NCBI RefSeq assembly: GCF_020969955.1
Contig: NZ_JAHDSX010000068.1
Location: 1 to 8,111, forward strand
From: Allobaculum fili
GTDB taxonomy: Bacteria > Bacillota_I > Bacilli_A > Erysipelotrichales > Erysipelotrichaceae
Direction of reading: 5' to 3'
Length of the DNA: 8,111 nucleotides
The notes beneath the pieces are model-generated. The model saw only the letters and a list, made by a program, of their open reading frames with translations. It had not been told where the DNA came from and searched no databases. This document shows, piece after piece, positions 1 to 8,111 of this stretch (within the stretch, counting starts at the first letter, position 1; each line of letters opens with the position of its first letter). The translations under genes were made by a program, and so were the position numbers.

Positions 1-80
1 CCGGAAACATATCGAACCCGGCCGTTAAGCTGCAGAACGCCGACAATAGCCGCAAGGCAAAGATAGGAAGCTGCCAGACA
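1..80 (+). rRNA. rrf: 5S ribosomal RNA, 3' portion (5' end lies upstream of the window)
   Basis: Read by eye against bacterial 5S (e.g. the B. subtilis 5S pattern ...CCGAACACGGAAGTTAAGC...AGCGCCGATGGTAG...AGAGTAGGA.GC.GCCA). The window has CGAACCCGGCCGTTAAGC (13-30), AACGCCGACAATAG (36-49) and AGATAGGAAGCTGCCAG (61-77) in the same order and spacing. A terminator follows immediately. The exact 3' end is +/- a few nt. Confidence 0.8.
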
Positions 81-85
81 AAATG

Positions 86-135
86 AAATCCCCGAAGGAT
101 AAAGGAGAGATCCAATATCTTTCGGGGATTTTTTT
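86..135 (+). terminator. Rho-independent terminator at the end of the rRNA operon
   Basis: AAATCCCCGAA (86-96) pairs perfectly with TTCGGGGATTT (121-131). An inner GGAT/ATCC pairing (97-100 / 110-113) shortens the loop. A run of 7 T follows (129-135). Confidence 0.8.
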
Positions 136-535
136 GCTGTCTGGAAATTTGTTCGAGAAATTTGCGTATTGAAAAATTTGTTTTTCGATTCGTCGGATGC
201 CTGCCCGAACACCAGGCGATCCTGTTTTCTGTCGAAACGATTGGAATTTTTACAGGATTCGCAAAGAACCTTTTAAATCTGGAGTTTTACGTATCTCTTA
301 ACAGAACTTTCGGGAGTCTTAGAAAGCACATACCAAAAACGGAGCGTGAGTCTTTATAGTCAGCCGTTTTGAAGGTTCACCCCCTGAAAAAACGGTTTCT
401 GTCGAATGGATAAAATCTATGTACCGAAATACGAAACGCCTGCTTTAGCAAAACAATCGTATTTCCGTATCGGACGCAAACTTTGTACGAAAGATGCGCC
501 AAAGAAATTTGCGAGGAAATGGAAGAAGGAAGGAA

Positions 536-1696
536 ATGGAAAAACCAAATGTATTTGTACCCCTGGGCGGGGCACAGTCTGTTGGCGACAGCTGCTATTT
601 TGTCCGTATGAATGGTGTGAACATCCTTCTGGATGCGGGTGCTGCAGTTCATGAGGGGCAGATTGAATATCCAGATTATGAATACCTCCTTCGGGCTGGC
701 ATTCTGGAAAGCTTCAGCGAAATCAATCTGATTCTGATTTCCCATGCCCACCTGGATCATTGCCGTGGTTTGCCTGTGCTGACCAATCTGGCAAAAAATG
801 CGGAAATCTGGACGACAGAAACGACATGGAAACTGGTTGAGCTCCAGCTCCAAAGGGGATTTCATCGGGATCTGCATGCTTCCAATCTATGGGTGACGCG
901 GATACAGGAGCGAGTAGAATTTCTGGATTTCATGCAGGAACGAAGTTTTGCCGATCTGAAGATCACGTGCCTCCAGGCTGGCCATATTCCAGGAGCTGCC
1001 ATGTTCTGGATCCAGAGCCGGAATAGCTCTCTGCTGTATACCGGCGATTACAGTCTGAACCAAATGCCGCTTACTGGGTCCGCCATTTTGCCCGAAGATA
1101 TCCATCCGGATGCGCTGATTCTTTGCGGTCTGCATGCACTGGATGAATACAGGTGTACCCGCTCCGGTCTTTCTGGTCTGCTGGGCGCAATTCAAAGCCA
1201 TATTGATGCCGGCGAGGCAGTGAACTGCCTGATTGGGCAGCTCTCCAAAGGGGTAGAGTTTCTCAAAATTATTCTCGATGAAATCGATGGTCTGGAGAAC
1301 ATCTATCTCGATACACGGGTTATGGATACCGTTCATGCGCTCGAGCAGAGCGGGATTCCGATACTGGATAAAAAATGCCGGATGCTGGCTGGGGAAGGAG
1401 ATGACGTTTTCGATGCGCCGCATACCATAACGATTGCCTCCGATTTGCGCTGTTTCCCGTTATACATCGATCCGTGGATAGTGGATTTCACGCTGCATGA
1501 GTCATATCTCCAGATGAAGGAAATTCTAGAGAGGCTCAATGCCGTACAGGTGTTTATCGTTCACTGCGATCCCCGGCGACAGAGCGGCCGGCCGATTGAT
1601 CAGCGCCTTCTCAATGAAGGCAGATGCTTCTCGCAAATCGAAATGCCGCAAAAGAAGGAGATTTTCCTTCTGCCGTTTCAGCCCGCATCCTGCTGA
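536..1696 (+). CDS. Metallo-beta-lactamase fold, beta-CASP family nuclease (RNase J/CPSF-like core, standalone, ~386 aa)
   Basis: ORF 494-1696. I prefer the ATG at 536 because it is preceded by GGAAGAAGGAAGGAA (SD-like) and because beta-CASP proteins start close to the 'PLGGAQSVGDSCY' strand. Motifs in order: LLDAG (motif 1), SHAHLDH (HxHxDH, nt 743-760), AGHIPGAA (motif 3), YTGDY (motif 4), DFTLHES (beta-CASP motif B His), VFIVHCD (motif C His). The upstream ATG at 494 cannot be excluded. Confidence 0.88.
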   Translation: MEKPNVFVPLGGAQSVGDSCYFVRMNGVNILLDAGAAVHEGQIEYPDYEYLLRAGILESFSEINLILISHAHLDHCRGLPVLTNLAKNAEIWTTETTWKLVELQLQRGFHRDLHASNLWVTRIQERVEFLDFMQERSFADLKITCLQAGHIPGAAMFWIQSRNSSLLYTGDYSLNQMPLTGSAILPEDIHPDALILCGLHALDEYRCTRSGLSGLLGAIQSHIDAGEAVNCLIGQLSKGVEFLKIILDEIDGLENIYLDTRVMDTVHALEQSGIPILDKKCRMLAGEGDDVFDAPHTITIASDLRCFPLYIDPWIVDFTLHESYLQMKEILERLNAVQVFIVHCDPRRQSGRPIDQRLLNEGRCFSQIEMPQKKEIFLLPFQPASC

Positions 1697-1817
1697 AAAG
1701 CTGAGAGGAGGTTTCGATCAAGGCGATCGATCTAATTTGAACAGAGCTGATTTTGTCATATCCCGTCCGAGCAGAGCCGTTCAATTCAGCTCGATCAGAC
1801 TTTGACCGTATCTCGGT

Positions 1818-1826
1818 TGGAATATT
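1818..1826 (+). promoter_or_regulatory. Candidate extended -10 element (TGgAATATT) for the 1933-6242 operon
   Basis: TG at 1818-1819, one spacer nt, then AATATT (4/6 to TATAAT). TTGACC at 1802-1807 is only 13 nt upstream, so it is not a proper -35. The call is weak. If real, the tandem array 1857-1926 lies in the 5' leader. Confidence 0.25.
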
Positions 1827-1856
1827 GCCCAAACGCAGAAGTTTGTATGGAAAGAA

Positions 1857-1926
1857 ATTCAGGAAATGAAATTCAGGAAATGAAATTCAGGAAAAGAGAT
1901 TCAGGAAAAGAGATTCAGGAAAGGAA
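1857..1926. repeat. Head-to-tail tandem array, 5 copies of a 14-bp unit (ATTCAGGAAAnnnn)
   Basis: Unit starts at 1857, 1871, 1885, 1899 and 1913, an exact 14-nt period. Copies 1-2 are ATTCAGGAAATGAA, copies 3-4 are ATTCAGGAAAAGAG, and copy 5 is ATTCAGGAAAGGAA. Copy 5 supplies the SD-like AGGAAAGGAAAG just before the ATG at 1933. Confidence 0.97.
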
Positions 1927-1932
1927 AGCCAA

Positions 1933-3279
1933 ATGAGTGACCACAGAAAAACATCCCGCCGCCCGCATAGAAATGTGTCCCGACAGGACGAAAAAAGAGA
2001 AGACGTAAAGCCAAAAAAGAAACCCGTCGAAAAGGAGGGAGAAAAGGCAGCTCGATCCTCACGACAGACTAGACCGGAGACGAATGCGAAAACGAAATCC
2101 TGCCCGAAAAACGAAACCAGAAATCAGGAGAAATCTGAGGGCAATCCAGAAAAGCGAAACGCAGCATCTTCCGCAGTTAGACCTGGCTCTGAGGCGACAG
2201 CCGCTTCGCCTACGGTGCAGGATCAGGTGATCGATAAGCTGCACGAAAAGATTCAAAACCGTCATACCAAAAAGAGAGTCCGTCAGGAGATCAGCAACGA
2301 AAACTGCATGCTCATGGTCTGCCTGCAAAACCCCGGACTGAGTCCGATGCAGATGGTTGAACGGGTGAATACGTATTACGGAACGATGGTTCGCTACGAT
2401 GACGTCCTGGAGTTTTTCCGGGTGCAGAAAATCAATCGGCCAGAAGTTCGCATCGCGATTTTTACGCAGGCAAAACAGAGCGCATCGCTTCTTGAACAGG
2501 CTATGAAAAACGATTTGTCCGCTCTCAATCAGTTCGAAGAAGAAATGAAAAGCCGTTCGAAAGAATTTGGCATTCATCGACAGTTCTTCTCTCGCATCCT
2601 GCTGACGACCTTCTTCCAGAACAATCCAGCCTTTCATAAATATGGCGATGAAGAAGATGTCGCCCTGATGGGCAATACGCTGCAGTTTTATACCCTGCTG
2701 GATTTGATCGATTCCATTCGACAGGCCATCGAAAATCAGGAAGAGGTCGAAAGCGCAGAAGAAAAAACGCTGAAAACCGTACCGGTTCGCGAACTGGAAA
2801 AAGCCAGCCAGAGAATTCGCGAGCTGGAAAGCGCGCTCGAGAGAACCGGCTATCTTCTTTCCGATTTGCAGGATGAATTCGACGCCCAGCTCGAACAGAA
2901 CAAGATTCGGGAAATCGTCGAGTTTTTCTCGCAGCTCAATTCGGAAAAATACGGCTTTTTGCTGGATGAACTGCTGGCCCTGCAAAAAGGCGTCAGCCGT
3001 CTTCGTAAGCAGAAGTACGAAACGCCGCCCGAAATCAGCGGCGTTCTGATCCTCGTTCGAAAACTGATCCAGTTTGTTCAGGACAGTCACATTAATCCGA
3101 TGTTCCGCCTCGATCAGGTGCTCGAAATTACCGCATCTCAGGCCGAGGAAATGGACTACGAAGGCGATCCGTTTCTCGACAATACGATGCTACGGAAAGT
3201 CCAGGTGCTTTCCCCCGGATGGATTTATCAGGATAAGGAAATTCAGATTTCAAGACCAAAAGTGAGGGAAATGAAATGA
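1933..3279 (+). CDS. Hypothetical protein with a GrpE-like C-terminal half. Putative dedicated nucleotide-exchange/adaptor partner of the downstream Hsp70-like ATPase
   Basis: 448-aa ORF with an SD-like purine tract upstream; its stop overlaps the next start (ATGA at 3276-3279). aa 1-120 are K/R/E/S/P-rich low complexity. aa ~283-360 are heptad-like helix (RELEKASQRIRELESALER...DLQDEFDAQLEQNK...EKYGFLLDELLALQKG; compare GrpE AEFENyRkR...EKf..eLLPV.D.L.RA). The C-terminus VQVLSPGWIYQDKEIQISRPKV (nt 3211-3264 cover SPGW...PKV) matches the GrpE beta-domain pattern V..v.qkGY.l..r.iRPa.V. Coding status is confident; the functional call was made by eye. Confidence 0.8.
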   Translation: MSDHRKTSRRPHRNVSRQDEKREDVKPKKKPVEKEGEKAARSSRQTRPETNAKTKSCPKNETRNQEKSEGNPEKRNAASSAVRPGSEATAASPTVQDQVIDKLHEKIQNRHTKKRVRQEISNENCMLMVCLQNPGLSPMQMVERVNTYYGTMVRYDDVLEFFRVQKINRPEVRIAIFTQAKQSASLLEQAMKNDLSALNQFEEEMKSRSKEFGIHRQFFSRILLTTFFQNNPAFHKYGDEEDVALMGNTLQFYTLLDLIDSIRQAIENQEEVESAEEKTLKTVPVRELEKASQRIRELESALERTGYLLSDLQDEFDAQLEQNKIREIVEFFSQLNSEKYGFLLDELLALQKGVSRLRKQKYETPPEISGVLILVRKLIQFVQDSHINPMFRLDQVLEITASQAEEMDYEGDPFLDNTMLRKVQVLSPGWIYQDKEIQISRPKVREMK

Positions 3280-6242
3280 CAAATCAGGCGAATGAACTTT
3301 GTGTCGGCATCGATCTGGGTACGACCAACTCTGTAATTGCGTTTACCAATACGCGCCCAAACGGCGATCTCGTCAGCCGGGTCTTCTCGGCCAGACGAAG
3401 CAACGATGTGTATTATGTGGCCGGTTCCGGGCAGTCGGTTTCCACCGTTCTGGAACCGACGCTGCCCAGCGTTGTGTACTATTCGATGGAAAGCGGCTAT
3501 CAGCCAATAGTCGGCAACTTTGCCCGTCATCAGTATGCGATTCGTCCGCATCTGGTGGCGCGTTCCATCAAAAGCCAGATGGGACAGCCCAGAGTCACCG
3601 GGCTTTCTCCGGATGTTCCGGATGAGACGCCGGCTAAAATTTCCAGCCGGATTCTCAAGCATCTGATCGCGGATATGTCCCGCAAATTCCGCACGCCGAT
3701 CGAAGAAGCGATTATTACCGTTCCGGCTAGCTTTGATGCCATCATGTGCGAAGCCACACGAGAAGCCGCAAGGCTCGCTGGACTTCGGATTTATCAGGAA
3801 GACGGCAGTGAAATGCCGATTCTGCTCTCGGAGCCCAACGCGGTGATTTACGATCTCATCAACCAGATTCGAAACGGGGAAGTACCCTCCTCGCTTCTCG
3901 ATGTTTCTTCGAAAAAGCGCGTTCTGGTCTTTGATCTGGGCGGCGGCACGCTGGATGTTTCCCTGCATGAAATTGAGCAGGATGCGCAAAGCGGTTCGCT
4001 GATGGTGGATGAAGTCGCCACCAACCGCTACACCCGCCTGGGCGGCGATGATTTTGATCGTCTTATTGCGGACGCGATGTATCAGCGTCTCTATACGCAG
4101 TATCACAAGCATCCGGAAATCCAGAATAAAATTGTGCAGCTGAAAGAGCAGATTTATCCGCAGCTGCTTGATAAGGCGGAAGGCTTAAAGCTTTCCGTGA
4201 GCATGGCGCAGGAAGATGTGCTGGGCAGCGGCTGGGGCGATGATGAGGAAGAGGATCTGTATCCGGTCGGCGGCCGAATCAGCACCCTGGGCTACGCGTA
4301 TGATGATTCCTTCACCAGGGAAGAAATAGAAGAAATCCTTTCTCCGCTTATGGGAAAGGATCTGACGATCGATCAGTATCAGAATATGGATACGATCGAA
4401 AATACGAAAAATATAATTTACCCCATTCTGGATGTTTTAAACAAAGCGTCCAGAGATACAGAAGGACCGGTTCCGGTCGATGCAGTCGTGCTGAATGGCG
4501 GCATGTCCAAGTTTTATCTGATCGAATCCCGTCTGGAAGAGTTTTTCGGCTTTAAGCCGATTACCGCAGTGGATCCCGATCAGTCGGTCGCCCGCGGTGC
4601 CGCGATTTATCATTATCTGCTGAAGCACAATCAGATCGCGAAGGGAAAAGGCCAGGTCGAACAGCTGCAGGAAGAAGGACTCGATCGAAAGGAAACGCTC
4701 GGATCCAATCCAGCCGATCCATCGGGTTCCAATGGCTTCGGAGCTTCTGCTGATTCTGAAAATGTGCAGGACGTTTCAAATATGACCTGGACAAATTCTG
4801 GCTCTTCGTCCACAGGTCAAAGCCTGAACGCTTCGGCTGGGTCAGAGCGGACTGCGGGTTTTCGGATTCGCCAGACCAGCATTCTCAATGAGAGTCTGTA
4901 TTTGCAGGGGCAGAATGACATTCATCGAAAAATCATTGAAGCCGGGACAAAGCTTCCGCATGAATCCGCTGTTTTAAACGGATTCATGATTCGAGCCGGT
5001 CAGAACAAGATCGCCATTCCGATTGAACATCGAAGCTACGATGGTTCGTATCGAATCATCGCCAACGGCGTCGTGAATCTGAACACGGTGTATGAGCAGA
5101 ATTTGCACGTGCGTCTGCAGATGAATCTTTCCAGCTCAAAAATCCTTTCCCTTCGTGCCTGGATTGTCGAAAATTCAGACAGCGAGGACGTGCTGGAAGA
5201 AGTTTCAGCACAGCTTTCCGTCTCTGGCGTAGGCCGTTCGGAACCGAAGGGGGCCCCGAAAATGCTTCCAAGTCTGATTTTCCAGAACACCCCAAGAAAA
5301 GTATCGACGGGCAATATGCAGGGAACAGGAACGGTGGATGTTTCCCGGCTTCTTCGAAACATGGAACGGGCTCTGGAATCTATGGATCGAGTGACCCATC
5401 CTGTACAGCGCGGAGAAAAAGTGAAAGAAGCCGCGCGGATCGGCAATCAGATTGCATCCTGCGCCAATAAGAAGGAAGCTGCATTTCCAGTTTTGGCCCT
5501 TCTGAAAAACACGACCAACGGTTTTCTGCGTGAACGGCTGTTCATTATCGCACGAAAGCTTGCTCCGTTCTGGACCGAACGGCAGACCGGCGAACTGGTG
5601 AAGATTGCCAAAGTTTACCTGACCAGTTCTCAATCGTATGGCCCAAAAACACTCAATCGCAATGGAGCGAATATTGAAGCCATTCATACGATCAGCGCAT
5701 GCGGCAAACCGAAGGATGCGCTGGATATTCTGGGAATGGGCTACGAACAGCAGTATCGCAATCCTCTGCTTAACCTTTGCGGTAAGCAGCAGGTCGCCAT
5801 CGACTGGATCAGCCGCTGCTTCTTAGAAGATGCGGATGCGGTATTCCTTCGCAAGCCCTGCAAGATCAGCGAAAGCACGCGTGCTCTGGGCAATGCGCTG
5901 CGCTTAAGTTCCGGACAGCGTGTAGCCATGTCTTCCCGAGACTTTTATATGGAAAAGCTCATCGCTCTGCTGCAGTCCGGATCGCTGTTTGACTTTGAAG
6001 TCGACAGCTGTCTGGTTGCGCTGGGCAGTATCGGCGATCAGCGCTTTGCGGACAATACGGTGGACGAAAAAATGCTCGAACGGGCACGCCGCTGCATTTC
6101 CAGAGTTCCGGACATTTATATCGACGTCCTCGCCACGCGTTTTGACCGCGCCAGAGAAGTCGTTGACATGCTTCTTTCCGGTCAGAAACTGGAGGCGGAT
6201 CAGGAAGCGTATCTTCTGGTTATGCTGGAAGGAAACGACTAG
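3276..6242 (+). CDS. Atypical Hsp70-family ATPase (988 aa): DnaK-like NBD, low-complexity insert, SBD-beta-like region and HEAT-like helical C-terminal domain
   Basis: GAGGGA SD 7 nt upstream of the ATG. Hsp70 motifs in canonical order: GIDLGTTNS (aa 11-19, nt 3306-3332), TLPSVVYY, IITVPASFD, LSEPNAV, VLVFDLGGGTLDVSL (DLGGGTLD at nt 3933-3956), LGGDDFD, VVLNGGMSKFYLIESRLEEFFG, DPDQSVARGAAIY. aa ~451-528 are S/G/N/Q-rich. aa ~529-650 resemble the DnaK linker plus SBD-beta (SILNESLYLQG; IIEAGTKLPHESAV; LHVRLQMNLSSSKILSLRAW). aa ~691-988 are helical with HEAT-like signatures (AIHTISACGKPKDALDIL; RALGNALRLSS; VALGSIGDQR at nt 6015-6044). Confidence 0.95.
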   Translation: MTNQANELCVGIDLGTTNSVIAFTNTRPNGDLVSRVFSARRSNDVYYVAGSGQSVSTVLEPTLPSVVYYSMESGYQPIVGNFARHQYAIRPHLVARSIKSQMGQPRVTGLSPDVPDETPAKISSRILKHLIADMSRKFRTPIEEAIITVPASFDAIMCEATREAARLAGLRIYQEDGSEMPILLSEPNAVIYDLINQIRNGEVPSSLLDVSSKKRVLVFDLGGGTLDVSLHEIEQDAQSGSLMVDEVATNRYTRLGGDDFDRLIADAMYQRLYTQYHKHPEIQNKIVQLKEQIYPQLLDKAEGLKLSVSMAQEDVLGSGWGDDEEEDLYPVGGRISTLGYAYDDSFTREEIEEILSPLMGKDLTIDQYQNMDTIENTKNIIYPILDVLNKASRDTEGPVPVDAVVLNGGMSKFYLIESRLEEFFGFKPITAVDPDQSVARGAAIYHYLLKHNQIAKGKGQVEQLQEEGLDRKETLGSNPADPSGSNGFGASADSENVQDVSNMTWTNSGSSSTGQSLNASAGSERTAGFRIRQTSILNESLYLQGQNDIHRKIIEAGTKLPHESAVLNGFMIRAGQNKIAIPIEHRSYDGSYRIIANGVVNLNTVYEQNLHVRLQMNLSSSKILSLRAWIVENSDSEDVLEEVSAQLSVSGVGRSEPKGAPKMLPSLIFQNTPRKVSTGNMQGTGTVDVSRLLRNMERALESMDRVTHPVQRGEKVKEAARIGNQIASCANKKEAAFPVLALLKNTTNGFLRERLFIIARKLAPFWTERQTGELVKIAKVYLTSSQSYGPKTLNRNGANIEAIHTISACGKPKDALDILGMGYEQQYRNPLLNLCGKQQVAIDWISRCFLEDADAVFLRKPCKISESTRALGNALRLSSGQRVAMSSRDFYMEKLIALLQSGSLFDFEVDSCLVALGSIGDQRFADNTVDEKMLERARRCISRVPDIYIDVLATRFDRAREVVDMLLSGQKLEADQEAYLLVMLEGND

Positions 6243-6369
6243 CTCTTCAGGTCGTATGCACGTCAGACCAGATTTCACCGATCAGCAGAAGAACAGAGGA
6301 ATACGATAGAAGAATGGAAGAACAATACCCAGAGATTCAAAGCTTCTTCATAAATCCATAAACCCTGAA

Positions 6370-6412
6370 CGCCTGGACTTTACGAACATCGAGAAGATCC
6401 AGGCGCTTTTTT
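6370..6412 (+). terminator. Rho-independent terminator of the Hsp70-like operon
   Basis: CGCCTGGA (6370-6377) pairs with TCCAGGCG (6398-6405), and a CTT/AAG pairing extends the stem into the loop. The stem is followed by C + TTTTTT (6407-6412). The loop is large, hence moderate confidence. Confidence 0.7.
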
Positions 6413-6453
6413 ACCCTCGATTCCTGGCGCATGGGAAACAGTGTGGATTTGTT

Positions 6454-6489
6454 GTTTATGATAAACGACTAAAAACATTCGATAAACGA
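6454..6489 (+). promoter_or_regulatory. Operator-like ATAAAC repeats upstream of the DUF2975/XRE pair
   Basis: Palindrome GTTTAT-g-ATAAAC at 6454-6466. Direct repeat GATAAACGA at 6460-6468 and 6481-6489, 21 bp apart (two helical turns), placed just upstream of the -35 position of the promoter at 6520-6528. Confidence 0.35.
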
Positions 6490-6519
6490 TAAATATAGAA
6501 TGCAAAACGTTAAAAATCA

Positions 6520-6528
6520 TGGTATACT
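6520..6528 (+). promoter_or_regulatory. Extended -10 promoter element TGgTATACT for 6556-7427
   Basis: TG (6520-6521), n, TATACT (6523-6528; 5/6 to TATAAT). It lies 28 nt upstream of the ATG at 6556, with AGGAGG in between. The -35 is weak (ATGCAA/TGCAAA), as is common for extended -10 promoters. Confidence 0.6.
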
Positions 6529-6555
6529 CTAGCCATCAAACAGGAGGAATTCCGT

Positions 6556-7131
6556 ATGGAAAAACTGTATGCCAGTCCCGCTTTTCAAAAAATCGCCATT
6601 GTTCTGATGAAAGTGATCGAAATTCTTTACTGGATCGGATCGATCGGCATGCTGCTTCTCATGCTTTACGGTCTGTTCAATCCAAGTGCTCTGCCTGAGC
6701 TTGCTGCAGGCCTTCGATCCTCCGGTCAGGATCTTGTGATCGGTAGCTACTCGCTCGAAATGAATACCGATACGGCTGCGTTGGCAAACCAGGATCTTGT
6801 TCTGTTTCTGTTTGCGTGCATGCTGATGATGACCATGATCGCGATGATTTTTCGCAATCTCTATCTGATCTTCCGGCGGTCCGAATCCGGTACGCCGTTT
6901 GATTCGGATTCCATTCGCATGATGGGCGAAATTGGGATTTTCTCGATTCTGATTCCCGTTATCGGTCTGCTCTTCAGCGTCATTTTGCGCATCCTTCATT
7001 TCTTTACTTCCGGTACAGCGGTCATGACGGTGTACATGGACGGTATCATTCTTGGCATCATCGTCTTCTTCATTGCCGGCTTCTTTGTTCGAGGCCATCA
7101 GCTTGAAGAAGATGTAGACGGACTGATTTAG
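6556..7131 (+). CDS. DUF2975-type integral membrane protein (4 predicted TM helices)
   Basis: Strong SD (ACAGGAGGAA) upstream. Four hydrophobic segments: IAIVLMKVIEILYWIGSIGMLLLMLYGLF, LVLFLFACMLMMTMIAMIF, IGIFSILIPVIGLLFSVIL, GIILGIIVFFIAGFF. A 'GTPFDSDSIRMMGEIG' loop between TM2 and TM3 is typical of DUF2975. The gene sits immediately upstream of a YozG-type HTH gene, which is the usual pairing. Confidence 0.85.
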   Translation: MEKLYASPAFQKIAIVLMKVIEILYWIGSIGMLLLMLYGLFNPSALPELAAGLRSSGQDLVIGSYSLEMNTDTAALANQDLVLFLFACMLMMTMIAMIFRNLYLIFRRSESGTPFDSDSIRMMGEIGIFSILIPVIGLLFSVILRILHFFTSGTAVMTVYMDGIILGIIVFFIAGFFVRGHQLEEDVDGLI

Positions 7132-7178
7132 TCTGGATTTTTGTTAGACTGAATAGAGAAAACGAGTCAGAAACAGCT

Positions 7179-7427
7179 ATGGGAAAAATCATTCTTCATC
7201 TTGACCGGGTGATGCTCGAGAGGCATATGAGCCTGAATGAACTTGCCAGCCAGGTCGGCATTACCAACGTCAACTTATCCAAAATCAAAAACAATAAAGT
7301 CAATGCGATTCGCTTCAGCACACTCGAAGGGATTTGCAGAGCGCTGAACTGTACGCCCGGCGATCTTCTCGAATACGTACCCGATGAATCTGACGAAGCG
7401 AAACCCAAAGAGATATCGGAAGAGTAA
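7179..7427 (+). CDS. XRE-family helix-turn-helix transcriptional regulator, YozG-like (COG3655 type)
   Basis: 82 aa. LDRVMLERHMSLNELASQVGITNVNLSKIKNNKVNAIRFSTLEGICRALNCTPGDLLEY is the characteristic YozG-family pattern (HTH followed by 'aiRfsTLe.iC.aL.C.PGDlLey'). Acidic C-terminal tail. Confidence 0.9.
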   Translation: MGKIILHLDRVMLERHMSLNELASQVGITNVNLSKIKNNKVNAIRFSTLEGICRALNCTPGDLLEYVPDESDEAKPKEISEE

Positions 7428-7447
7428 TCCGAAAGAGTAATCCGAAA
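7422..7447. repeat. Perfect 13-bp tandem duplication (GAGTAATCCGAAA x2) spanning the XRE stop codon
   Basis: Copy 1 is 7422-7434 and copy 2 is 7435-7447, identical. The TAA stop of 7179-7427 lies inside copy 1. Confidence 0.95.
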
Positions 7448-7652
7448 GATCCATGAGAGGGTGCAATCTGCAGGAAACACGGCTTCGTGTTCCGAATGGA
7501 AATGAGATCGTCGACAGGGTTGAGCAGGATCGCCTGCATACCTGTTGTCGGGCAGCTGCTTTCCGTCAAAAATGCATAAATAAAAAACGGATGGAAAAGA
7601 GGCTGCTGAAAAAGTCCCGTTTTTTGAAGTATAAAATCCGTGAAATAAAATT

Positions 7653-7693
7653 AAACCCAGCGAAGTTGCGTCAAAGACGCCCTCGTTGGGTTT
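7653..7693 (-). terminator. Hairpin, probable minus-strand terminator downstream of the transposase (or a structured IS end)
   Basis: AAACCCAGCGA (7653-7663) pairs with TCGTTGGGTTT (7683-7693) with one mismatch. An inner GCGTC-aaa-GACGC stem sits at 7668-7680. On the minus strand the hairpin is followed by AATTTTATTT (U-rich). On the plus strand the tail is only TTTGTGCTT. Confidence 0.5.
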
Positions 7694-8111
7694 GTGCTTG
7701 ATATGTGCATGATAATTTTCGAAAAAGCCGGTAATGGGGGTGAGATATCCCCATTATTCGGTGGATAAGTCCGTTTTTTCCGAATTTTGGGCGCACTTAT
7801 CCCAGGGATTTTCCGAAAGCTTAAAAATTCGCTGGATGTTTGACAGAAAGATCGTAACGGCCGCCTGCAGTTTCATTGAATTCAGCCCGCCTCCGCTCGC
7901 CTTACCGTATCCATAGTTCTGTTTAAGCTCGGCATTTTTCGCTTCGATTTTATAACGCTCATGCATCAGTTCCTGGTATTCTTCTGTCTCCATGAACGCC
8001 ATCTGCTCAAGGTGAATATCGCTTTTGATTTTGACGGAGTAGCTTTTTGATTTTGCTCCTTCTTTGTAGCACCCTTCTTTGAGCGGACAGTGTTTACAGC
8101 GCTCTACATCG
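7694..8111 (-). mobile_element. Partial insertion sequence (IS1182/IS5-like). The inner boundary is not determinable from this window
   Basis: Inferred from the transposase fragment. The other IS end is not in the window, so the terminal inverted repeat cannot be identified. The boundary is placed arbitrarily just outside the 7653-7693 hairpin and could lie anywhere between ~7450 and 7753. Confidence 0.35.
7754..8111 (-). CDS. IS1182/IS5-like DDE transposase, C-terminal part (N-terminus beyond the window edge)
   Basis: The minus-strand frame is open from the window edge: DVERCKHCPLKEGCYKEGAKSKSYSVKIKSDIHLEQMAFMETEEYQELMHERYKIEAKNAELKQNYGYGKASGGGLNSMKLQAAVTIFLSNIQRIFKL. The CxxCPL..C cluster followed by Y..R..IE..n.elK...G...a...GL......Q......N+.RI is the typical C-terminus of IS1182-family (DDE_Tnp_1_6-like) transposases. 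The listed ORF 7754-8002 is only the Met-initiated tail of this frame. Confidence 0.85.
   Translation of the reverse strand, partial: DVERCKHCPLKEGCYKEGAKSKSYSVKIKSDIHLEQMAFMETEEYQELMHERYKIEAKNAELKQNYGYGKASGGGLNSMKLQAAVTIFLSNIQRIFKLSENPWDKCAQNSEKTDLSTE

Follow-up and report, generated by a model that had tools for sequence, protein, structure and literature searches.

What kind of protein is encoded between a nuclease gene and an Hsp70-like gene in Allobaculum fili, and what could it be doing there? The question is raised by an 8,111-nt stretch of DNA (contig NZ_JAHDSX010000068.1 of assembly GCF_020969955.1, positions 1 to 8,111, forward strand; the whole stretch is called the window below) in which three tightly arranged genes lie on the plus strand: one for a metallo-beta-lactamase-fold (MBL) protein, the open reading frame (ORF) under study, ORF2, and one for an Hsp70-like protein. 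The C-terminal half of ORF2 is organized like GrpE, the nucleotide-exchange factor of DnaK and mitochondrial Hsp70 (structures 1DKG, 8GB3, 9BLS, 3A6M). GrpE is regarded as a compact, easily recognized housekeeping co-chaperone; its bundle helices and beta domain contact lobes IB and IIB of the Hsp70 nucleotide-binding domain (NBD). ORF2 appears to carry a GrpE fold that has diverged beyond detection by hidden Markov models (HMMs), has been fused to a new domain, and is committed to a non-canonical Hsp70 in a nuclease operon. The evidence below suggests that it is probably, though not with great assurance, a dedicated GrpE-like regulator or adaptor and the middle gene of a self-contained, horizontally mobile Hsp70-nuclease conflict cassette.

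The C-terminal half of ORF2 and its relation to GrpE

The full-length AlphaFold2 model of ORF2 (mean predicted local distance difference test score, pLDDT, of 82, from a 90-sequence alignment) bears out the three-part architecture that the initial annotation had proposed from the sequence: a basic N-terminus, a helical middle, and a C-terminus with GrpE organization. The boundaries needed adjustment. The K/R/E-rich N-terminus is present and disordered as proposed (aa 1-89, pLDDT about 40), but it ends near aa 90-94 and not at 120; likewise, the middle domain is confidently modeled and all-helical, but it spans about aa 95-275 (from helix 95-111 to helix 248-275) instead of 120-280. It is followed by a 52-residue helix (283-334), two shorter helices (337-359 and 366-384), and a small beta domain with strands between 387 and 446. 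The segments quoted in support of the GrpE-like organization fall where they were placed: EKYGFLLDELLALQKG sits in helix 337-359, GVLILVRKLIQFVQD in helix 366-384, and VQVLSPGWIYQDKEIQISRPKV in the strands at 421-446.

Modeled in isolation, aa 283-448 reach a pLDDT of 92.6, and a Foldseek search of this model against the PDB returns GrpE for all of its top eight matches, from four organisms: E. coli (9a81_A, 1dkg_A), M. tuberculosis (8gb3_E), human GrpEL1 (9blt_B, 9bls_C, 9bls_B), and Thermus (3a6m_A/B). These matches have probabilities of up to 0.91 and template modeling (TM) scores of up to 0.49/0.51, and they cover the full model over 163-184 columns; from the ninth match onward the probability is 0.11 or less. 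The isolated C-terminal model was the only informative query, and searches with the full-length model gave noise in both the PDB (AhpD and globins, probability 0.44 or less) and BFVD.

Sequence profiles point the same way. ORF2 belongs to a family that was previously without annotation, with 157 matches among 90%-identity clusters and, among 50%-identity representatives, 361 matches at E<=1e-3 and 290 at E<=1e-10. A profile of 245 C-terminal modules from this family was compared by hhalign with a GrpE profile of 74 diverse sequences (taken from genome loci, plus sequences from E. coli, Geobacillus, and human that were checked against PDB entries). The two align with 91.9% probability (P=7.1e-7, score 49.0, 136-153 columns), and the alignment is collinear, running from the stalk helix through the bundle helices to the last beta strand. 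Reversed profiles score 17-19 and column-shuffled GrpE profiles at most 24.6. The match is also spread along the module: the stalk helix alone aligns with the long helix of GrpE (score 22.6, P=1e-3), as do the bundle-plus-beta segment alone (score 32.1, P=1e-4) and the beta domain alone (P=0.02), and every sub-segment falls in the correct GrpE register. The depth of the profiles matters here, as a GrpE profile of only three sequences gave no significant match (1% probability). Reciprocal HMM searches between the two families are weak but consistent, with best E-values of 8.6e-6 and 1.2e-5 in small databases.

As judged from the predicted structure and the profile alignment together, aa 283-448 are a remote homologue of GrpE, and the GrpE likeness seen by the initial annotation is upheld. 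The specific check that it had suggested, a search against the Pfam GrpE model PF01025, turned out differently. ORF2 itself gives nothing at E<=1 or even E<=10 and does not reach the gathering threshold; sub-threshold matches appear in 11 of 90 relatives (best E=0.0015), and the divergent member P0222 has a precomputed weak Pfam GrpE match. The ORF2 module is not a member of PF01025 as that family is currently defined. Another Pfam model, DUF2096_N, has sub-threshold matches in 43 of 90 relatives, which fall on the bundle helices and not on the N-terminal domain.

Conservation within the family is strongest in the same module, which is its best conserved part across more than 300 clusters at 50% identity. 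The region of aa 337-384 includes the family signature FFSxLNSEKYG...LDELL, and ten residues of the bundle region (F331, F332, N336, S337, Y340, G341, D345, G353, G370, F381) and five of the beta domain (Y409, G411, G429, W430, P442) are invariant. Along the stalk helix, hydrophobic residues read by eye show heptad-like spacing (L288, I295, L298, L302, L309, L312, F316, L320).

The helical domain of aa 95-275 is also kept across the family, and it is duplicated in four members (P0135, P0177, P0195, P0227). In the Foldseek search with the full-length model it had no fold match in the PDB or BFVD. Models for IS630 transposase, HTH_Tnp_Tc3_2, HTH_32, and Homez do give repeated sub-threshold matches in relatives, mostly within the first ~100 residues of the domain, and the AlphaFold2 model of ORF2 has three short helices at 118-132, 138-149, and 155-164. 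These three may form a homeodomain-like helix-turn-helix (HTH) around aa 118-164, and the sub-threshold IS630/Tc3-type signals provide a lead for a connection between the helical domain and nucleic acids.

A fixed gene triplet in a variable context

The immediate neighbors of ORF2 homologues are constant. Synteny was counted over 67 metagenome loci, of which only those with enough flanking sequence were scored. Directly before the ORF2 homologue there is an MBL gene in 52/52 loci, and directly after it an Hsp70-like gene in 53/53, always on the same strand, which bears out the adjacency to a nuclease noted in the initial annotation. The same order was found in all individually inspected loci, among them loci from Lachnospiraceae, Selenomonadaceae, Treponema, and Allobaculum. 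The first three of these are also, as metagenome-assembled genomes, the named sources of the family alongside Allobaculum; most other matches come from gut or rumen-type metagenomes. Family members are typically 355-365 aa long and align with ORF2 residues from about 95 to 448, and the partner Hsp70-like proteins are mostly about 900-990 aa. One 732-aa protein (P0173) is an in-frame MBL::ORF2 fusion placed before an Hsp70-like gene.

Beyond the triplet, the surroundings change from locus to locus. There is no conserved fourth gene, and none of the families among the 117 flanking ORFs is represented more than three times. Some of the neighbors are consistent with defense or mobility. One cassette has McrBC and a type I restriction-modification (RM) system next to it, another a STAND-kinase and a HEPN/MNT pair, and another a ResIII restriction enzyme; Cas1, Cas6, and PD-T4-6-like kinases occur in some flanks. 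A divergent cassette in locus L154 (6536-9799), with an Hsp70-like protein of only 779 aa, is followed by genes for a DarT-domain protein, an IS110 transposase, and a Macro-domain protein, and the DarT/Macro pair resembles a DarTG-like toxin-antitoxin defense pair. Relatives of ORF2 were not found in IMG/VR viral contigs.

The first gene of the cassette encodes a protein with Pfam matches to Lactamase_B_2/B_6 and NCBIfam matches to aCPSF1, Cas14 (sub-threshold), and the RNase J N-terminal region. Among proteins of solved structure, IntS11 and CPSF73 come closest to it (E about 1e-24), and it also matches archaeal aCPSF1, TTHA0252, and Artemis/Apollo. The HxHxDH motif is present (as SHAHLDH), and candidate histidines of beta-CASP motifs B and C are visible in FTLHES and IVHCD. 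In the alignment with IntS11, the acidic beta-CASP motif A (ISESTY in IntS11/CPSF73) faces LCGLH in the window protein; judging by this alignment, motif A may be missing or shifted.

The third gene encodes a protein with an NBD (about aa 1-450), an S/G/N-rich low-complexity linker (aa ~455-540), and a C-terminal half, including the last ~300 residues, for which searches gave no significant match. A likeness to the beta part of the substrate-binding domain (SBD) was seen by eye after the linker (SLYLQGQNDIHRKIIEAGTKLPHE), but an hhalign comparison with one DnaK SBD sequence did not reach significance. The best PDB match of the protein is the DnaK NBD from the GrpE complex (1DKG_D). Thirty-three homologues including the window protein were aligned with DnaK, two of them truncated; in the 32 that cover the N-terminal motifs, D8, K70, E171, D194, T199, and D201 (DnaK numbering) are invariant. 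The NBD is divergent elsewhere: a larger insertion takes the place of the DnaK loop near residues 28-34, and lobe IB is shorter. Such an NBD could plausibly need its own exchange factor. A charge swap between an acidic ORF2 stalk and a basic partner NBD was also considered and dropped; in the alignment, the partner NBD retains an acidic residue at one or more of the equivalent positions.

A regulatory role weighed against other explanations

If ORF2 works as its fold suggests, the GrpE-like module would dimerize through its long helix and dock on the NBD of the co-encoded Hsp70-like ATPase via the conserved bundle and beta surface. There it would control ADP/ATP exchange or lock the nucleotide state, and the ATPase would thereby gain a private cofactor in place of the housekeeping GrpE. 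The helical domain of aa 95-275 might tether the nuclease or nucleic acid. The state of the ATPase would then gate the CPSF73/IntS11-like nuclease, most plausibly in an abortive response against phages or mobile elements. A bolder version of this proposal sees the cassette as a new prokaryotic immune module, in which a private and complete Hsp70 cycle (a competent ATPase plus a diverged GrpE-type factor) acts as sensor and timer licensing the nuclease and the helical domain couples nuclease to ATPase; this is possible but doubtful. If the general idea is correct, the cassette is a case of a chaperone nucleotide cycle turned into a switch that regulates a nuclease, probably in immunity. The idea would then also give an annotation to several hundred "hypothetical protein" clusters of gut and rumen bacteria.

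The comparison with GrpE shows both likenesses and differences. The order of elements is the same (long helix, two bundle helices, small C-terminal beta domain), both share the C-terminal motif G-[YW]-x-[LY]-x-D-[RK]...RP-x-V, and the ORF2 gene adjoins that of an Hsp70 homologue. On the other hand, ORF2 has a 180-aa folded helical domain (plus an 86-aa basic tail in Allobaculum) where GrpE has a short disordered N-tail, its neighbor is a divergent Hsp70-like protein of roughly 780-990 aa and not DnaK, no DnaJ accompanies it, and it lies in a nuclease cassette instead of being a housekeeping gene.

Several observations weigh against the proposed role. Some concern the relationship to GrpE: ORF2 has no Pfam, NCBIfam, or PADLOC match at E<=1 (nor one in PHROGs) and, even with the family profile, no sequence match in the PDB at E<=10; the Foldseek E-values are weak (0.011-0.67) and the global TM score is 0.51 or less, although modest E-values are expected for an elongated, hinged protein. 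In the hhalign alignment, the family lacks two of GrpE's three sequence signatures. The basic ENxRRR of the stalk helix, a patch that is essential for DnaK binding in M. tuberculosis GrpE (PMC10803776), is replaced by an acidic stretch (DLQDEFDAQLEQ; DLQDEFxxQLEE in the family), and FDPxxHxA has no counterpart; the third, GYxLxxRxLRPAxV, is partly kept as SPGWxYxDKxIQISRPxV. Pfam searches found no J-domain in any cassette protein. Other observations concern the cassette and its role: many flanks hold housekeeping genes (rpoC, nrdD, and transporters, for example), the MBL::ORF2 fusion is a single example, and no PADLOC-DB v2 model recognizes the cassette beyond generic NBD or MBL similarity (the Hsp70-like protein has a weak match, in its NBD, to candidate PDC-M61B at 2.3e-4, the MBL protein has matches only at E>0.01, and ORF2 has none). 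The literature searched held no phage-challenge data for the cassette, and the suggestion of a defense role is drawn from genomic context only.

How else might these observations be explained? The resemblance to GrpE could be convergent or artefactual, with a coiled coil and a small beta domain matching by composition. This would fit the failure of ORF2 itself to match any profile significantly, the 1% probability obtained with the thin GrpE profile, and the presence of coiled-coil families among the sub-threshold Pfam matches, but the deep profiles align far above the reversed and shuffled controls (25 or less), the part that is not coiled coil (bundle plus beta) aligns by itself in the right register, the top eight structural matches are exclusively GrpE, and an Hsp70 homologue is the next gene in all 53 scored loci, all of which make coincidence extremely improbable. 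Alternatively, the fold could be genuine but serve as a structural adaptor only: a docking module, antitoxin- or scaffold-like and lacking exchange activity, that holds the nuclease on the Hsp70-like ATPase or inhibits the latter. Loss of the DnaK-contacting ENxRRR patch and of FDPxxHxA, as well as the larger insertion at the DnaK loop 28-34 region of the partner NBD, would fit such a protein, and the extra helical domain and the one MBL::ORF2 fusion suggest tethering. However, the catalytic residues of the ATPase are invariant, which implies that the nucleotide cycle is probably used, and the beta domain and bundle helices, the parts that contact the NBD in GrpE, are the best conserved in the family; a purely structural role is accordingly regarded as unlikely. 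The cassette might also have nothing to do with immunity and instead be an accessory module for RNA processing, RNA quality control, or stress proteostasis, in which a CPSF73/RNase J-like RNase works with a specialized chaperone pair. Its nuclease is indeed closest to RNA 3'-end endonucleases, and the housekeeping flanks, the lack of a matching PADLOC defense model, and the lack of relatives among IMG/VR viral contigs are in keeping with this. The patchy occurrence in distant phyla, where the gene order stays fixed while the neighbors vary, and the recurrence of the cassette beside RM, McrBC, DarT, STAND-kinase, and Cas genes and transposases make a non-immune function decidedly unlikely.

A further proposal concerns the basic N-terminus. 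The initial annotation had suggested that a polycationic tail links Hsp70 cycling to RNA or DNA, that is, that it is a functional nucleic-acid-binding arm. The first 94 aa of ORF2 do contain 25 K/R and 14 D/E residues (net charge +11), and there are signs that the tail may be translated: a good Shine-Dalgarno-like AAGGAAAG lies 7 nt before ATG1933, the tail frame runs for 98 T-poor codons free of stops, against 2 and 5 stops in the other two frames (the chance expectation, calculated from base counts, is about 0.02), and the 448-aa ORF is kept in all 15 listed cluster members and strain variants. Among close relatives, only the two closest, P0003 (34 aa) and P0029 (26 aa), carry tails of a polar or basic kind, which are shorter, and canonical GrpE also has a functional disordered N-tail (PMC10803776). 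Set against this, the N-terminal extension is less than 15 aa in 214/244 family proteins with a matched N-terminus, and the 86-aa basic tail is limited to one cluster of nearly identical sequences from Allobaculum. The tail is disordered by prediction and does not show the codon-position GC periodicity of the rest of the gene, and variable positions between strains are about twice as dense in it as elsewhere. A GTG with an upstream AGGA is present at aa 99 (GTG2227), near where relatives begin to align. The DNA around the tail is unusual as well: the gap between MBL and ORF2 genes is elsewhere about 15-150 nt (mostly 15-60), whereas in the window the distance from the MBL stop to the conserved core is ~0.5 kb. 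It comprises 237 non-coding nt, which end in a 14-nt tandem repeat whose last unit supplies the Shine-Dalgarno-like sequence, and the tail-coding stretch. This ~0.5 kb looks like a lineage-specific insertion, and the basic tail is a recent lineage-specific addition in Allobaculum. Because it is confined to one Allobaculum cluster, it is not part of the core mechanism and cannot account for a link between the Hsp70 cycle and nucleic acids in this system; the suggested nucleic-acid arm is not supported as a general idea and is improbable.

Further points bear on the tail. A dN/dS analysis was set aside as the strain variants of the tail, at more than 98% identity, are too close. P0002 (350 aa, 99% identical to ORF2) was discarded as evidence for the GTG start at aa 99: its contig is without window positions 1244-2045, so it is not an independent case. 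The gap at 1244-2045 is seen in L005 (contig k141_9467), which is 99% identical to the window; the junction has an 8-nt overlap, and the missing stretch takes in the C-terminus of the MBL protein, the spacer, and the beginning of the tail. It stems from either a natural deletion or a join made in assembly.

The favored reading, a dedicated GrpE-like regulator or adaptor in a conflict cassette, can also be compared with systems that have been described. Beta-CASP nucleases are known as immune effectors, in the form of Cas14 of type VII CRISPR-Cas and of MBL effectors paired with proteases. The cassette MBL protein is related (strongly similar to CPSF73/IntS11 and sub-threshold to Cas14), but it has no CRISPR, Cas, or protease partner within the cassette, where the regulator would be the Hsp70/GrpE-like pair. 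Modules of HSP70 and GrpE (with or without DnaJ-fused FNIII) occur in GAP1-N2 GTPase-centric conflict systems (Kaur et al., 2020, PMC7159879). These share with the cassette an Hsp70 family ATPase and a GrpE-type factor in a predicted biological-conflict operon. They contain GTPases, FNIII or DnaJ proteins, and a recognizable GrpE, and are found mainly in actinobacteria and firmicutes; the cassette, set apart by these descriptions, has no GTPase or J-domain, and has a beta-CASP nuclease effector and a previously unrecognized GrpE-like protein. In type III CoCoNuTs, which are McrBC-derived, CnuD and CnuCD combine an Hsp70-like NBD/SBD with HEAT-like repeats (Bell et al., 2024, PMC11090510). Here the likeness lies in a large Hsp70-like protein, extended at its C-terminus by a long helical region, in a nuclease-containing, defense-type operon. 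Going by the published description, the differences are that the ATPase motifs of CnuD are reported to be degenerate, whereas the catalytic residues of the cassette protein are invariant, and that CnuD has no described GrpE-like partner (the report contains 0 mentions of GrpE), whereas a GrpE-like gene is obligatory in the cassette. Neither kind of system contains this triplet, this N-terminal domain, or an unrecognizable GrpE, and no description of an MBL/GrpE-like/Hsp70 cassette was found in the library of literature searched. As a minimal and easily cloned three-gene unit, the cassette would, if the reading is correct, extend the computational hints of Hsp70 in conflict systems that come from the GTPase-centric systems and CoCoNuTs.

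Layout of the window

The coordinates of the cassette, the parts of ORF2, and the surrounding features are collected in the table. The TGA stop of ORF2 overlaps the ATG of the Hsp70-like gene in an ATGA at 3276-3279, and translational coupling of the two genes is probable. A search of the window gave no Rfam family, and positions 1600-2300 showed no promoter-like site.

Features of the 8,111-nt window, with the evidence for each
Feature	Position	Strand	Basis
Beta-CASP metallo-beta-lactamase-fold nuclease, 400 aa, cassette gene 1	494..1696	+	Pfam, NCBIfam, PDB matches
14-nt tandem repeat AAAGAAATTCAGGA, 5.5 copies, 92% matches	1851..1927	+	Tandem Repeats Finder
ORF2, 448 aa, ATG start, TGA stop	1933..3279	+	ORF list
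ORF2 aa 1-94, basic disordered lineage-specific N-terminal tail	1933..2214	+	pLDDT, family comparison
ORF2 aa 95-275, family-specific all-helical domain	2215..2757	+	AlphaFold2 model, family conservation
ORF2 aa 283-334, long helix, likened to GrpE N-terminal dimerization/stalk helix	2779..2934	+	AlphaFold2, hhalign
ORF2 aa 337-384, two helices, likened to GrpE four-helix-bundle helices	2941..3084	+	AlphaFold2, hhalign
ORF2 aa 387-446, small beta domain, likened to GrpE C-terminal beta-sheet domain	3091..3270	+	AlphaFold2, Foldseek, hhalign
Hsp70-like ATPase, 988 aa, cassette gene 3	3276..6242	+	Pfam HSP70 4e-35
DUF2975-like membrane protein and HTH_26 Cro/C1-type regulator, downstream of cassette	6556-7131 and 7179-7427		Sub-threshold Pfam match for DUF2975
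DDE transposase C-terminal fragment, window end	7754-8002	-	

The DUF2975-like/HTH_26 pair is not kept beside the cassette in other lineages, and a small HTH_26 gene precedes the cassette in L154. On the Allobaculum genome contig (L086), the ~5.9 kb upstream of the cassette (2663-8604) hold two short called genes only, and two DDE_Tnp_1 transposase genes (1359-2663 and 15810-17342) bracket the cassette.

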